The notes under the pieces were generated by a model. The model was not told the origin of the DNA, ran no database searches, and saw only the letters and a list, made by a program, of their open reading frames with translations. Shown piece after piece: positions 13,476 through 28,240 of a stretch of DNA of 36,357 nucleotides (its first letter is position 1; every line of letters begins with the position of its first letter). Made by a program: the position numbers and the translations under genes. Source of the DNA: a virus (Duplodnaviria; Caudoviricetes); IMG/VR virus record IMGVR_UViG_3300030433_000071, positions 1 to 36,357 of that record; one strand, written 5' to 3'.

Positions 13476-14876
13476 TTACCGCTGCCTTTCTATATATGAC
13501 ATCAGCCCATCAAGCCACTGCTGATCAGGAACGATGTAGCCGTCTTTGCGCTTATTCATAGCGTCGATAGCCTCGGTGTGCGTGAATGGTCTTGGTACGC
13601 TGCCACCCGTCATTCTCTGCCTCGCAGCTTGGTAGTAATCGGGGAACATCACTGAAAACGGCACCGTCTGCTCCAGCGACCCAAAATAGCTGCCCGGCAT
13701 CACGGTGTCATATGACTGATGCCTGCTACTTGGGAACACGTCCCGAGACACGTCCGGCAGCAGCATTGTGAATCCAGACTCACCAAGTTCTGCTTGGCGC
13801 AATGCAGGAAGCGTAGACGCCTCAAGCACCTGCCCATAGGACGGGAAGCCTCTGTCCCTGTATTTCGCCATACCCATCAGTGTGGTGAATTTAGTGCGGC
13901 GCTTGCCCTCATTAGGGAAGTCGCCTCGACCGAGAATCCAATCGATTGCGTCTGGACTGTCCAGCCCGGGCCAATCTTTGTATGTTGCTTTCAGGTCTTT
14001 ATCAAACGCTGCCTTGTCTTTTTTGGGGATGTTGATGTTCTTGGTCTGCAAAAACATCACCTCTGCTGGCGGCGTTGAAAAGTTTACTGATTCCAGCCCC
14101 ATCGTGTTATAAATCCCTATGGGCTGCCTGCCTGTCTCATCAGCAATTCTCTTGAACTTGTCATGCTGGGATTGGGCTACCGCAAGGTTTGATTGCCAAG
14201 CCTCTGGGTTAGCCTGCGGGTATTGAGCGCCACCCTGAACGGGAACCGACCTGCCGGTTGGAACTCCGCCCACCATATCTATCAGTCCGATAAATGATCT
14301 GTCTCCACGCACTGGCGTTAATGCGTAATCACCAGATGCCAGCACCTCTGGACTAATGTATGTCTGCGGAAAATCTTGTATCTCCCTGATAGTCTCACCT
14401 TGATTGGCTATCGCAATCGCCTCCCTGTCAGCAAAGCCTTTGCTGCCGCTCATAGCCTTATCGTAGCTTGTCTCAGCCCTTTTGATCTGGGTTGGGTTAT
14501 CAAGGTACTCTGGACTAAGAAAGCCCAAATCAAGAAGCCTGTCCTCTTTGCCTCCGCGCCGAGCTATCCCCATCAGCACCGCAGATGCAGCGTCACCTAG
14601 CACTGGCACAACGCCTGCAGCGGTCGCAGCGCCCATGAGTCCAGCGGTCGCGTAATCACCCTTCTTCGCGGCGTCTACGGTTTCTGCAGCGCCTTTCGCG
14701 TCACCTATGAAGGGCAGTAAGTCCACAACCGACAGCAGCCCCTCAGCGGCCCTATACGCGGCATACGGGTTGTCTTCATATAGGCCCAGACCTATCAAGC
14801 CAGATGCGATCTTGTCTCGTGCTGACTCAATGAAGCCCGGCTCGTATGGCTGCAGCTGCGGCATATCCCTGCTCAT
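13476..14876 (-). CDS. Protein with pre-toxin-like N-terminal domain and C-terminal domain of unknown function
   Basis: First ~100 aa are paralogous to 14873..16201 (DLLPFIGDAKG..E...G.Y..VPVLGD); the remainder is unrelated to it. Confidence 0.8.
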   Translation of the reverse strand: MSRDMPQLQPYEPGFIESARDKIASGLIGLGLYEDNPYAAYRAAEGLLSVVDLLPFIGDAKGAAETVDAAKKGDYATAGLMGAATAAGVVPVLGDAASAVLMGIARRGGKEDRLLDLGFLSPEYLDNPTQIKRAETSYDKAMSGSKGFADREAIAIANQGETIREIQDFPQTYISPEVLASGDYALTPVRGDRSFIGLIDMVGGVPTGRSVPVQGGAQYPQANPEAWQSNLAVAQSQHDKFKRIADETGRQPIGIYNTMGLESVNFSTPPAEVMFLQTKNINIPKKDKAAFDKDLKATYKDWPGLDSPDAIDWILGRGDFPNEGKRRTKFTTLMGMAKYRDRGFPSYGQVLEASTLPALRQAELGESGFTMLLPDVSRDVFPSSRHQSYDTVMPGSYFGSLEQTVPFSVMFPDYYQAARQRMTGGSVPRPFTHTEAIDAMNKRKDGYIVPDQQWLDGLMSYIERQR

Positions 14877-16201
14877 TGCTTCTTTTCCCAGCTTTCTGTT
14901 AAACGCTCAATAATTCCCAGTAGGGCAGGCTCTCCGTCTGGGCCTTCAAACTTTAAGTAACCTTCCGGGTCTTGGTTAAGGAACCGGCTGCCGGTCTCTG
15001 ACAAATCGACTATGCCCCTTTGCGGGTCATAAGTGCGACCGTAAACGTGCTGCATTGCATAAGGCGCAGAATTGCCTCTTCTAGCTGCGGGCAGTCCCAT
15101 CTCATATAAGCCCTTCGCGTTTTTGAACCTCATAGCCTCTGTTAAGAATGCCTCAGACTCTCCAGCAGAAAGCAGATAGTTCCTGTAATCGGGCAGCTTT
15201 CCAACGGACTGAATACGCCTGCTCGCAAGATCGTATGGGTCTAACTGTTCACGCCCAACCAAGGCAGGAAACAGATCATCCGATTGATCATGATCCCTAA
15301 GCCATCGCTTCTCGTTCCAGAACGCATCTCGCGCTTTTTGGTTAGCGTTATTACCTGCTCCACGGTTCAGCCCCTGCAGATCCTGTACCGCGTGCTGAAG
15401 CTCATGCACTGTTGTTGACGCCATATCATCAAGCATATCTGGCGATCTTGTCCCAACGCCGATAAAAGGAACCACATATGGCTCATCTGGGTCGCGGACA
15501 ATATTTAGCAGGCCGTCACCTTCACTGTAATATCCCGCCATATCTTCTTTGCGTAAATCTTCAAACGACAGATCCAGCATCTCAAGATCAGGCAGCGTCT
15601 CAAACAGCCTGTCGTGCCTATACATATCGGTAATAGGCTCTCGTACCCTTGGCATACTTCGATTCGTATCTGAGAACGTGTCCCTGATAGCGTCATAAGC
15701 ACGCTGCGTGAACTGCGCCTCATTGTCAGGTAGCTCGGTTCTCCACTGACCATCTGCGCCCCTAAAGAACGCCGTTTGGTTATAAATCTCAGAAGGCGTC
15801 ACACCCTTCTCTTCAAGCTCCTGCGCCTTAGCGTAATCGTCCGCATCACCCAGCGTGTGCTTAAACGTAGCGACACGGGCTGGGCTGACAAACATTGATT
15901 TAAGTGCGCCTGCTGCAACATCGCCAACGCCCGGGATTGCCCCTAGCGCGGTAAGCAGGCCAGTGACTGCAGCCTCACCGTAGTTACCCTCTGCTGCAGC
16001 GTCAGCGGTTTCTGCGCCGCCCTTCACATCACCGACAATAGGGACAAAGTCCAGCAGGCCAGAAAGGTTTTCTGCCATCCTGTATGCGCGGTATGGGTTG
16101 TTTTTGTACAGACCTAGACCGAGCAGCCCCTCAGCAATGCTGTTGGTTGCAGTGTCTACAAGCCCCGGCTCATACGGGGCTAACTGAGGATTAGTAGCCA
16201 T
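14873..16201 (-). CDS. Polyvalent-type protein: pre-toxin-like N-terminus, LPD23-like domain and HExxH zincin-like metallopeptidase
   Basis: IYNQTAFFRGADGQWRTELPD (LPD23-like), TTVHELQHAVQDLQG (HExxH) and downstream YLLSAGESEA. Confidence 0.75.
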   Translation of the reverse strand: MATNPQLAPYEPGLVDTATNSIAEGLLGLGLYKNNPYRAYRMAENLSGLLDFVPIVGDVKGGAETADAAAEGNYGEAAVTGLLTALGAIPGVGDVAAGALKSMFVSPARVATFKHTLGDADDYAKAQELEEKGVTPSEIYNQTAFFRGADGQWRTELPDNEAQFTQRAYDAIRDTFSDTNRSMPRVREPITDMYRHDRLFETLPDLEMLDLSFEDLRKEDMAGYYSEGDGLLNIVRDPDEPYVVPFIGVGTRSPDMLDDMASTTVHELQHAVQDLQGLNRGAGNNANQKARDAFWNEKRWLRDHDQSDDLFPALVGREQLDPYDLASRRIQSVGKLPDYRNYLLSAGESEAFLTEAMRFKNAKGLYEMGLPAARRGNSAPYAMQHVYGRTYDPQRGIVDLSETGSRFLNQDPEGYLKFEGPDGEPALLGIIERLTESWEKKQ

Positions 16202-16215: not shown

Positions 16216-17496
16216 TCAGGCGATGCCTTGTAGGTTACGGCGTATCGGGTCGCCCCAGTTACTGGTCTCACGGTGACCGACCGCCAGATACCGGAATGCG
16301 TCAGCACTGTGGCTCGACCAATCGTGTGCCGGTCTACCCTTCCACACCCGGTTATTGTCATCGTACTCACGGTGATACGCTCGTAGCGCGTCAATCAGAT
16401 GGTTGCACTTCTCAGCGTCAAACCAGCACGTTGCCAGCAGCGACCGGGACGCCTGTATCCCGTCATCCACGTTTAGCTGCGGGGCGATCTGGATGTTGTT
16501 AAGGCCCAGACTCTGCAGCGTCTCTAGCCGTGACTTGCCCGATCCTAGCTCCCGGACCCGGACATCATGCGGCAGGATATGCTGATCGTAGATGTAGCCC
16601 TTCTGCTGCAGCACCCTAACGTAGTGGTCTAGACCCACGCCAGAAGCCTCGTAGTGGTCGATTACCCGGGTCTCTGGGCCTACCTTCTGGCAGAACACTA
16701 TCGCCGTTGTATCGCCTATACCTAAGTCCCACGCCGTGATCACTGGCACCCGGGTCTCATACGGCACTGCGGTGATCCTGCCTTGTGCGTTAGCGTCACG
16801 CATCTCTAACGAATAGTACGCGCCCTCATGGTGGGTCAGAAATGCGCCTTCCCAAATGTGATCGTAGTTGTCTGGGCGCTTCTCAAAGTCATTGCGCCGG
16901 ACTAGGTCCAGCACTTTGGGGAAGTAGGGATTGTCGCGCCAGTTGATCTCTACGATCTTGCTGCTCTCTGGCGGGTCTTTGCGGAACCGCTGGTGCGTAG
17001 CTGATAGGTTGCTCTCCGGGTTCCACGATACCCATAGCTCAGAGCCTTCCTCGCGGATCGTAGGGTCCAGCTTGTCCCATGCGGTGCCTGACACCGTCTC
17101 TGCCTCATCAACCCAGCAGAGCAGGATACGGGCCTTTGACTTGATACTGTCTAAGTTGCGCCGCAGCCCGGAAAAGGTGAACTCGATATTCCCGTCCCGG
17201 GACCGTATGTACCGCTCACCGACCTCGTAGTAATCAGCCAGCCACTCGTAGGATGATATAGCGCCTGACACCTCTTCAAATGAGCTATCAGACAGGCTGT
17301 TCATGAACTCACGAGCGCAGAGGATCTGGCCCGACCTGCCCTGATTACCCCAGATGTATCCGCGTACAGCAGCCATGATTGCAAAAGAGCGGCTCTTGCC
17401 AGAACCACGCCCACCATAAGCACAACGGTAACGCGCCTCGCCACTGAACAGGTCTACCAGCTTCGGGGGTAGTTCAATCGTCGCAATATTCGTCAT
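16216..17496 (-). CDS. terL: Terminase large subunit (PBSX/Terminase_3-like)
   Basis: Walker A YGGRGSGKS, Walker B CWVDEAE, nuclease motifs AWDLG and HSADAFRY. Confidence 0.97.
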   Translation of the reverse strand: MTNIATIELPPKLVDLFSGEARYRCAYGGRGSGKSRSFAIMAAVRGYIWGNQGRSGQILCAREFMNSLSDSSFEEVSGAISSYEWLADYYEVGERYIRSRDGNIEFTFSGLRRNLDSIKSKARILLCWVDEAETVSGTAWDKLDPTIREEGSELWVSWNPESNLSATHQRFRKDPPESSKIVEINWRDNPYFPKVLDLVRRNDFEKRPDNYDHIWEGAFLTHHEGAYYSLEMRDANAQGRITAVPYETRVPVITAWDLGIGDTTAIVFCQKVGPETRVIDHYEASGVGLDHYVRVLQQKGYIYDQHILPHDVRVRELGSGKSRLETLQSLGLNNIQIAPQLNVDDGIQASRSLLATCWFDAEKCNHLIDALRAYHREYDDNNRVWKGRPAHDWSSHSADAFRYLAVGHRETSNWGDPIRRNLQGIA

Positions 17497-17782
17497 CTGG
17501 CAGCCGGGGGATTAACTCAATAACCGTAGGCGACATACTGCCGTCACTGGTCGTTAGATCAACCTCAGTAGCCTTCAGCTTCGGCTCAGTGTACGCAGCG
17601 ATCTTGTCCCATGCGTCGATACTGGCCTTGATATCAGCCGTCTCACCGCTCTTAGCGATCTCGTGCAGCCTATCTGCCTGCTCTGCCATACGCATGATTG
17701 GGTGGAAGTCATCGCCGTACATATCCTGTAGCCGGGACAGTAGGAACTTCTTGTTGCGGTTTGGTACGCCTCGCCTGCTCAC
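17474..17782 (-). CDS. terS: Terminase small subunit (putative)
   Basis: 102 aa overlapping the TerL start; R.GVPN..K N-terminus and Y..PKLKA.EVDLT motif. Confidence 0.7.
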   Translation of the reverse strand: MSRRGVPNRNKKFLLSRLQDMYGDDFHPIMRMAEQADRLHEIAKSGETADIKASIDAWDKIAAYTEPKLKATEVDLTTSDGSMSPTVIELIPRLPDDEYCDD

Positions 17783-18021
17783 TCTGAGATCAACTCACTG
17801 ATATCTAACATTAAATCCGACCGCTCTGGGTGCGGTATGCCGTCTGCCCACCACTCCCCTACGGTGCTGCCACAGTGTATCTCGCCGTCCTGTATGTCCT
17901 TAGCGTCCATAGGATAACTCTCTACACTACCGTCTGAGAATGCGACCAGATACGTTCCCTCGACCTCTGGCATCTCGCCGTAGGCTACCGGGTACCACTG
18001 TATGCTCAACAGCTGCTGCAT
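17779..18021 (-). CDS. DUF551-like small protein
   Basis: W.PV...MPE..GTYLV....G...W...P.P pattern; GGGGAG RBS. Confidence 0.6.
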   Translation of the reverse strand: MQQLLSIQWYPVAYGEMPEVEGTYLVAFSDGSVESYPMDAKDIQDGEIHCGSTVGEWWADGIPHPERSDLMLDISELISE

Positions 18022-18037
18022 CGCACTCTCCCCAATA

Positions 18038-18138
18038 GGTGACGCAGACGGTCAAATACTACTCTCTATGAGTTAGTTGGCCCCTTTCGTATCTGACCTA
18101 TAACGATGCTGCGCCTCACCGCCGGAGGGAGGGGCCGG
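18038..18138 (-). ncRNA. Candidate structured RNA (nested stems plus possible pseudoknot) upstream of the terminase operon
   Basis: 18038-18047 pairs with 18109-18120 (2-nt bulge); 18050-18059 with 18089-18098 (one G-U on the minus strand); 18061-64 with 18070-73; loop 18079-18085 is complementary to 18130-18136. Confidence 0.55.
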
Positions 18139-18163
18139 AGTAAAGATTCTCCCATACCCTATA

Positions 18164-18361
18164 TTATCTCCCATTGTCCGGCTTCTTGAAAGCTGCAGGG
18201 CAGCGCACGATCTCAAGCGGTGGGGTGTCAGCGTCTTTTAGTGGCCTAACAGACAGATCCGTCATGATCGCCATGTCTTCTCCCCATCGTTCCGCCATCT
18301 GCATTGCAGCCTGCAGTGCGATCTTCACGTCTTCATCCTGCCACGGTGAGACGTAGTTCAC
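18164..18361 (-). CDS. Hypothetical protein
   Basis: 65 aa, coupled to the upstream gene. Confidence 0.65.
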   Translation of the reverse strand: MNYVSPWQDEDVKIALQAAMQMAERWGEDMAIMTDLSVRPLKDADTPPLEIVRCPAAFKKPDNGR

Positions 18362-27856: not shown

Positions 27857-28240
27857 TTATGCGGTGAAGCGGTAGGCGTGAGTCACACGCTTGCGTGACC
27901 ACTTGCAGTCGGCGGGATCTGCACCATCAAACCAGTTGTCATAAACCTTCTGGTTTTTGATGGCGATAAAGTGACCGCCGACCCTCAGAAAGTAAGTGCC
28001 TGACTTGGTCGTGTGCTTTTCGACGAATGATTTGAGCGATCCGCGCTCTGCCATTTCGTCAGCCTTACCATGCTTATTCAGCACGTTGACGCAGTCGGTA
28101 ACGTAGCTATACCCCTGCCAACGCTTGCCACCGTAACGCTTGGGGTTGGCGGCAGCAAACTTGCTCATGCTTTCCTCGACACTAACGCCGATAAGATGAG
28201 CTACTGAACTAGGACCGCAATTTGGCTTTACTGATTTCAT
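27857..28240 (-). CDS. Small papain/C39-like fold protein (first gene after promoter P2)
   Basis: Start at ATG 28240; NCGP...GHFIAI.....YDN gives a Cys-His-Asp order. Confidence 0.6.
   Translation of the reverse strand: MKSVKPNCGPSSVAHLIGVSVEESMSKFAAANPKRYGGKRWQGYSYVTDCVNVLNKHGKADEMAERGSLKSFVEKHTTKSGTYFLRVGGHFIAIKNQKVYDNWFDGADPADCKWSRKRVTHAYRFTA

Follow-up and report, generated by a model that had tools for sequence, protein, structure and literature searches.

What lies in the 142-base gap ahead of the terminase genes of this phage, and what could it do? The window, that is, the whole stretch of 36,357 bases that we analyzed, is a complete-looking phage record with nearly all long open reading frames (ORFs) on the minus strand. 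Behind a replication and nin-like set of genes for a primase/helicase, NinB, an exonuclease and NinG lie small ORFs and then the gap, and beyond the gap come an 80-aa ORF and the terminase genes, first the probable small and then the large one. The capsid and portal are SU10-like, and the closest annotated large terminase is 51% identical to that of the window. An earlier note had listed several short strings in the gap, all of which are present on its minus strand, and had proposed a conserved pseudoknotted RNA on the transcribed strand, outside the known tRNA, riboswitch and ribozyme families. Covariation in relatives and the absence of an Rfam match uphold that proposal, and the comparative analysis argues for a real, uncatalogued family of double-pseudoknot RNAs in phages (Table 1).

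Elsewhere in the window, the large terminase is followed at 13476-16201 on the minus strand by two large ORFs of 466 and 442 aa that resemble each other at the N-terminus, one of them with an LPD23 polyvalent-protein domain. On the same strand, an identical 16-base leader with a Shine-Dalgarno (SD) sequence and a start codon precedes two successive small genes, at ~28253-28238 and ~27854-27839.

Table 1. Features of the element and its surroundings in the window
Feature	Position	Strand	Remarks
Whole structured element, 98 nt, predicted double pseudoknot	18039..18136	-	71.7 bits with model R2
Upstream 65-aa ORF	18164..18361	-	no family match; relatives both with and without element
Downstream 80-aa ORF	17779..18021	-	no family match; relatives both with and without element
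102-aa ORF, probable small terminase	17474..17782	-	assigned from position; no PHROG or Pfam match
Large terminase	16216..17496	-	phrog_3717, E 2.8e-64
Putative sigma-70-type late promoter, TTTCAA-17 nt-GATAAT	18163..18191	-	overlaps upstream stop codon; from reading the sequence
SD-like GGGGAG of the 80-aa ORF	18028..18033	-	8 nt after P1
PK 5' strand, GGCCCCU	18130..18136	-	pairs with 18085-18079, 7 bp
PK 3' strand, AGGGGCC, in apical loop	18079..18085	-	fixed-window pairing tests
Conserved pyrimidine tract CUCC	18124..18127	-	YUYY-type tract before P0 in 34/37; no cis partner shown
P0 5' strand, GGUG	18117..18120	-	newly found helix with invariant G-U pair; covariation
P0 3' strand, CAUC	18105..18108	-	covariation
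P1 5' strand	18109..18115	-	7-bp core with 18047-18041; one-base loop A (18116) before it
P1 3' strand	18041..18047	-	followed by conserved A (18040); covariation
P2 5' strand	18089..18098	-	family P2 8 bp, window P2 10 bp; covariation
P2 3' strand	18050..18059	-	pairs with 18098-18089, one G-U
Conserved loop trinucleotide CAU	18068..18070	-	YAU in 31/37

Collection of the family

Relatives of the probable small terminase led to 59 loci; in 23 of these the gap is present at high identity, and another 7 have a diverged form. Pattern scans, together with scans with the two flanking protein families, gave 54 distinct cores (24 clusters at 85% identity) among 286 matches, many of which are the same contig recovered again. 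One member (L257) was recognized by eye, two scans without a specified 5' strand added 5 and 7 diverged members, and a model search found three further tandem copies in L601. The early search patterns fixed several core bases, so that the conservation of those bases is biased upward. Altogether, phage, prophage and metagenome contigs yielded about 70 distinct family sequences. The units are ~95-125 nt long and mostly single, and 13 of 20 records searched with model R1 gave exactly one match each.

Model R2, run without filters, returned 37 matches in 93,695 bases and no others up to E = 1. Loose patterns produced mostly chance matches, with at least 17 true members among the 120 metagenome loci listed and none among the 120 genome loci listed from GTDB contigs. 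Model searches of 151 + 151 bacterial genomes, with 25 candidates scored per genome, gave one weak match that looks spurious. Comparison of the window region and four homolog stretches with annotated phages and plasmids by blastn returned nothing useful.

A double pseudoknot supported by covariation

Folding of the single sequence was rejected as evidence, as it gave no significant z-score: the energy is unremarkable for 166 nt (z = -0.33), and the gap itself has z = -1.09 on the minus strand vs -2.21 on the plus strand. The architecture is much rarer. With thresholds taken from the window's own element, a P1 of at least 7 bp, a nested P2 of at least 10 bp and a crossing pseudoknot helix (PK) of at least 7 bp occurred together in none of 2000 dinucleotide shuffles; of 1035 minus-strand windows of the genome, 3 had the combination, one being the element site and two falling in one coding stretch near 28.0 kb. 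A stable fold in a coding region at 27880-28027 on the minus strand (z = -3.05, 0/200 shuffles) also passed the nested-stem and pseudoknot test.

Covariation in the relatives supports P1, P2, the 7-bp PK and an added helix, P0, in the predicted fold. In a plain MAFFT alignment of 45 sequences, in which L257 is out of register at the 3' end, P0, P1 and P2 are paired in 100%, 98.7% and 96.7% of cells, respectively; none of 500 shuffles reached such pairing, and slid controls gave 32-49%. Two-sided changes were found at 4 of 7 pairs in P1 and 7 of 8 in P2, RNAalifold finds both helices unprompted, and together they are 98.2% paired in 51 model-aligned matches. P0 consists of GGYG paired with CRUC directly after the P1 5' strand. 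Its variable pair in the 54 cores is U-A in 26, C-G in 25, U-G in 3 and C-A in none, and its other three pairs, the G-U included, do not vary in the 45 sequences. Both P2 and P0 include G-U intermediates, which indicates that the RNA has the minus-strand sequence.

The PK is only 82% paired on the MAFFT alignment, where the 5' pseudoknot is poorly aligned, and for that reason we tested it sequence by sequence with fixed windows. Among 24 cluster representatives, 0 of 50,000 partner permutations equaled the native pairing. For 15 members recovered by patterns that did not specify the PK, the native duplex scored -17.7 kcal/mol vs -11.7 for swapped partners, and 0 of 100,000 permutations were as good as native; since the sequences are related, neither permutation count is a true probability. 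One member (L602) has a full strand swap, with a G-run in the 5' strand and a C-run in the loop.

Along the unit, the strand order is PKa, CUCC, P0a, A, P1a, P0b, P2a, PKb, CAU loop, P2b, P1b, AC. Judged by covariation, P0 and P1 cross as a predicted H-type pseudoknot with a one-base first loop, and the pairing of the apical loop with the 5' end forms a second pseudoknot. With these two crossings, both ends of the unit would be locked in helices. The long loop of the P0/P1 pseudoknot holds P2 and, in most members, P3, a helix of 3-7 bp reaching up to the PK; P3 has only 2 bp in the window's lineage, where GAA stands opposite AGUA above P2, which we take to be a loop-E-like motif. The model alignment of 37 members has 7 invariant columns and another 12 conserved at 90% or more, and P1 is followed by C and then A in 34 of the members. 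The CUCC tract is relaxed to UUCC or CUUU in some members and lost in L705.

These results refine the helices named in the earlier note. Its 7-bp GGCCCCU/AGGGGCC pseudoknot and its nested P2 with a single G-U both pair in the window, the former being supported by covariation and permutation tests in the relatives and the latter by covariation. The 7-bp core of its P1 likewise pairs and covaries, but in 25 of 54 cores the proposed GGUGA/UCACC extension could form only with a C-A mismatch. A CCGG...CCGG hairpin exists in only 9 of the 54 distinct cores and is dropped. The inner ACUC/GAGU hairpin holds for the window's lineage and was seen only there, with UUUC at its place in L018 and L053. An overlapping 29-codon ORF was not borne out, as 3 of 9 close relatives tested have the in-frame ATG and the length differs. 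We also rejected a CUC/GAG hairpin (H0): the sequences allow it, but none of its pairs changes on both sides and it conflicts with P0 and P1. Most members could also form 3-7 bp between AUG and CAU, a pairing that would compete with the upper part of P2 and shows only partial covariation.

Variants, a tandem array and another candidate RNA

The most elaborate arrangement was found in L601:826-1301 (G026:C1:15953-16428), where four back-to-back, sequence-diverged copies, each with its own PK sequence and separated by spacers of a few bases, lie ahead of a helicase gene. Copies 2 and 3 represent a sub-type without the one-base loop and have the closing pair of P0 swapped to C-G. The same genome has a reverse transcriptase (RT) gene at G026:C1:43457-44029, 27 kb from the array. 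Three members (L033, L036 and L037) are a long form whose P2 arm is ~45 bases longer and contains additional hairpins.

In some relatives of the 65-aa gene, the slot after the gene holds a different candidate RNA (L219:~810-880, also L220 and L223), possibly a three-way junction. A 7-bp loop-to-downstream pairing can be drawn for it, plain folding is not significant, and it had no Rfam match.

Genomic context of the copies

The element is spread across many unrelated phages and is independent of the downstream genes. Neighbors named by eye from translations include an ssb-like gene (L395), capsid-region genes (L645, L667), ninG/ninB (L687), a Cro-like gene before the element (L672), a primase-like gene (L705) and the helicase gene of L601. 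Two prophage-like records also carry suhB/mmgR-like and SorX-like small RNAs (L672:999-1073 and L705:1815-1892) at most ~600 bases from the element. The genome GC of the compared carriers ranges from 48 to 66%. No protein was common to all 7 element-bearing genomes compared by blastp, and hence no phage-encoded partner is evident.

The element is optional in its gene neighborhood. A model match was absent from 41 loci with the upstream or downstream gene family, among them L257, a member that R1 missed. Where the same gene pair lacks the element, the gap often holds a hairpin, a U-run and a promoter-like box, as read by eye in 11 of the loci listed (L249, L253, L261, L327-L331, L333, L335, L336, L338).

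The PK begins close behind a same-strand stop codon: in 25 of 34 loci its 5' strand starts at -6 to +15 nt relative to the stop (median 3). Such closeness is expected in compact phage genomes and stands without a null; the automatic distances for L082, L275 and L620 look mis-assigned. In four loci (L143, L257, L625, L663) the next gene is convergent and the element ends the operon. On the 3' side, at least 6 U in the 12 nt after P1 were found in 13 of 37 members vs 1 of 37 in an upstream control window, which is mostly coding DNA and therefore inflates the contrast. The U-rich tail is missing in the other 24, the window included, and U-runs begin 1-5 nt past the stem, not at it. A terminator scan called none at the element site of the window.

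Promoter-like sequences occur on both sides. Of 33 representatives, 13 have an extended -10 box 4-15 nt upstream of the PK, and a promoter-like box with a start codon follows the element in 3 of 33 by score and ~8 more by eye. The putative late promoter of the window was not picked up by a consensus promoter scan; its GATAAT box is retained in close relatives. An SD sequence after the element is missing in many members. In ten loci (L069, L082, L119, L167, L266, L268, L272, L284, L294, L412), an extended -10-like box lies just after the element and 6 nt before an SD-less start codon, which suggests leaderless late messages.

A recoding signal was looked for, and no frame is kept through the element: frames 0, +1 and +2 are open in 3, 6 and 6 of 34 members. 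Expression data gave no usable signal. In one run (X1), a single 178-nt contig covers 17976-18153 at a depth of 6.5, but it does not stand out from similar single-read contigs elsewhere at a depth of 4-5; abundant free RNA from the element left no sign in the two runs, which are uninformative on this point.

What the element may do

The reading that we prefer, tentatively and with less than even confidence, is a self-contained RNA knot that would form or protect phage transcript ends at operon boundaries. Several features lead us to favor end formation or protection: the slot resembles that of a terminator, about a third of the members have U-rich tails, some copies end operons, one phage has a tandem array, and both ends of the unit are predicted to be paired. 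A self-contained unit is what fits all placements. In such a mechanism, 3'-to-5' exonucleases would stall at P1 after downstream transcription or cleavage, leaving a stable 3' end on the upstream message, and P1 may double as a terminator stem where a U-rich tail follows. With a late promoter just 5' of the element, as putatively in the window, it would cap the 5' end of the late message. Degradation of the flanks on both sides would leave behind a stable free RNA of ~100 nt. The window's element would then lie in the leader of the late transcript, ~20 nt downstream of the putative start, and the SD, 8 nt past P1, would remain free. Several points count against a transcript-end knot. A plain hairpin is enough to protect 3' ends, so that the 7 invariant and 12 highly conserved columns may point to catalysis or specific binding. 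In the 13 representatives with an extended -10 box before the PK the element heads a transcript, and the offset U-runs and the 24 members that lack a U-rich tail speak against it as well.

Strong conservation of the core keeps a ribozyme and a decoy close behind end protection. A new class of small self-cleaving ribozymes, in which the P0/P1 core with its invariant G-U and conserved A would cut near a border of the unit (such as the conserved C-A step that follows P1) and separate the upstream and downstream messages, is on balance unlikely. The size, the two pseudoknots and the invariant core bases fit a rule of thumb for "biochemically sophisticated" RNAs given in the accessible part of PMC5737381, the element is independent of its neighbors and of any phage protein, the C and A after P1 are nearly constant, and in the long form the next start codon lies 8 nt past P1 with no SD. 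Yet no Rfam ribozyme model matched any member scanned, no known ribozyme occupies the same slot in element-free relatives, and a cut between the L601 copies would have little to separate. The freely varying PK strands also differ from the conserved cleavage-site helix of glmS (PMC11602151, as far as accessible), and the accessible part of PMC5737381 judged downstream terminators to be at odds with self-cleavage for other motifs.

Somewhat more doubtful is a trans-acting cargo RNA, which host nucleases would free and which would bind a host protein or complex, either as a decoy for an RNA-binding defense sensor or nuclease or as a ribosome-binding mimic, its place in the genome setting only dose and timing. 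Consistent with this are the tolerance of the element on either side of a late promoter, its frequent position after genes expected to be highly expressed (the capsid-region and ssb-like neighbors), the dose that a fourfold array would add, its optional presence and the single match in most records searched with R1. The exposed CUCC presumably resembles an anti-SD, but its relaxation or loss argues against base-pairing to host messages. We hold it possible, though short of probable, that the family represents either a new natural class of catalytic RNA or a folded RNA used against a host protein, across unrelated tailed phages and prophages.

An antiterminator or anti-pause element that would load onto RNA polymerase where late or early operons begin is very improbable. 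The nearby extended -10 boxes and the position after a Cro-like gene in L672 agree with it, as does the precedent of HK022 put, a ~65-nt cis RNA acting without a phage protein (accessible part of PMC8632103); such an element fails where nothing lies downstream on the same strand, as in the four operon-end loci, elsewhere the promoter-like box and start codon come after the unit, and the double hairpin of put is another fold. We give even less credence to the switch or riboswitch of the earlier note, in which the pyrimidine tract would alternate between the pseudoknot and the downstream ribosome binding site (RBS). In the window the tract could pair with the SD region at -10.6 kcal/mol, vs -14.1 for the PK, but in several members the PK sequence is no pyrimidine tract. 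A switch acting through an RBS fails on genomic context, given the convergent neighbors of four members and the frequent lack of a downstream SD. Its tie to the terminase operon is undone by downstream genes that are unrelated to one another and by a phage with four tandem copies, and a packaging-associated RNA is unlikely with many copies away from terminase genes. Riboswitches and translational switches as a class were rejected, as we found no consistent 5' UTR position, expression platform or related downstream genes.

Small double-pseudoknot RNAs with invariant core bases across distant lineages have often proved to be ribozymes, riboswitches or specific binders. The short element, its many natural variants and its covariation-backed fold make self-cleavage, nuclease blocking and termination testable at once.

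Comparison with known systems

Rfam 15 gave no match on the element, whether the whole window was scanned at the gathering threshold, the region at E-values up to 10, or 31 other loci by E-value (13 + 6 + 12). Its self-cleaving families (hammerhead, HDV-like, twister, twister-sister, pistol, hatchet, glmS) likewise had no match on the element. Compared by hand, the strand order did not fit the folds of these ribozymes, apart from a loose likeness to glmS. Literature searches by words, not by sequence, found no paper describing the motif, and it had no match in the four text supplements of Fremin et al. 2023 (PMC10690425; ~10,000 candidate alignments), the rest of which may hold a prior listing. 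We consider the fold and the family categorically new; the function may be of a known kind, and the motif may sit in unpublished or unsearchable candidate lists.

In glmS, the 5' end pairs with a strand inside a long loop, as in the element. Both have two crossing pseudoknots (for the glmS core P2/P2.1/P2.2, see the accessible part of PMC11602151), whereas the element is not upstream of glmS, its 5' helix is not conserved in sequence, and an extra P2/P3 arm carries the 5' partner. Membership in put or in the RNA arrays of UG27 RTs was rejected. The element shares with HK022 put a short cis RNA near phage promoters that needs no phage protein, but put needs downstream genes (PMC8632103, as far as accessible) and the element also ends operons. 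UG27 arrays are, in the accessible part of bioRxiv 10.64898/2026.09.22.753630, phage-borne, sequence-diverse and structure-conserved pseudoknotted units that may form arrays, as here; those units are ~135-167 nt beside a three-gene RT locus, whereas the element is shorter and mostly single with no adjacent UG27 RT locus. The RT profile PF00078 matched in 1 of 5 element-bearing genomes, that of the tandem array, and in none of the other four.

Two further parallels are intrinsic terminators and xrRNAs. The element shares with the former the slot after a stop codon, a GC-rich closing stem and, in 13 of 37, a U-rich tail; in contrast, its "loop" is a structured domain of 60-90 nt, its U-run either starts away from the stem or is missing, and many copies lie at the head of a transcript. 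The xrRNAs of flaviviruses and plant viruses are described in the accessible part of PMC8374639 as compact protein-free folds with one or two pseudoknots that lie after a stop codon, are commonly tandem and also block bacterial RNase J1. The element resembles them in its compact pseudoknotted fold, its position and its tandem copies in L601. However, xrRNAs belong to eukaryotic RNA viruses and form a 15-16 nt ring around the 5' end (same source), whereas the element occurs in DNA phages, has another strand order and a 5' end paired in a freely varying helix, and its secondary structure does not make such a ring evident. If a phage xrRNA-like roadblock proves true, bacterial viruses would join those known to use this mechanism; the result would be larger still for a ribozyme or a decoy. 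If the transcript-end reading is right, the element would act like an xrRNA or a reinforced terminator, a likeness of action and not a shown membership in either.
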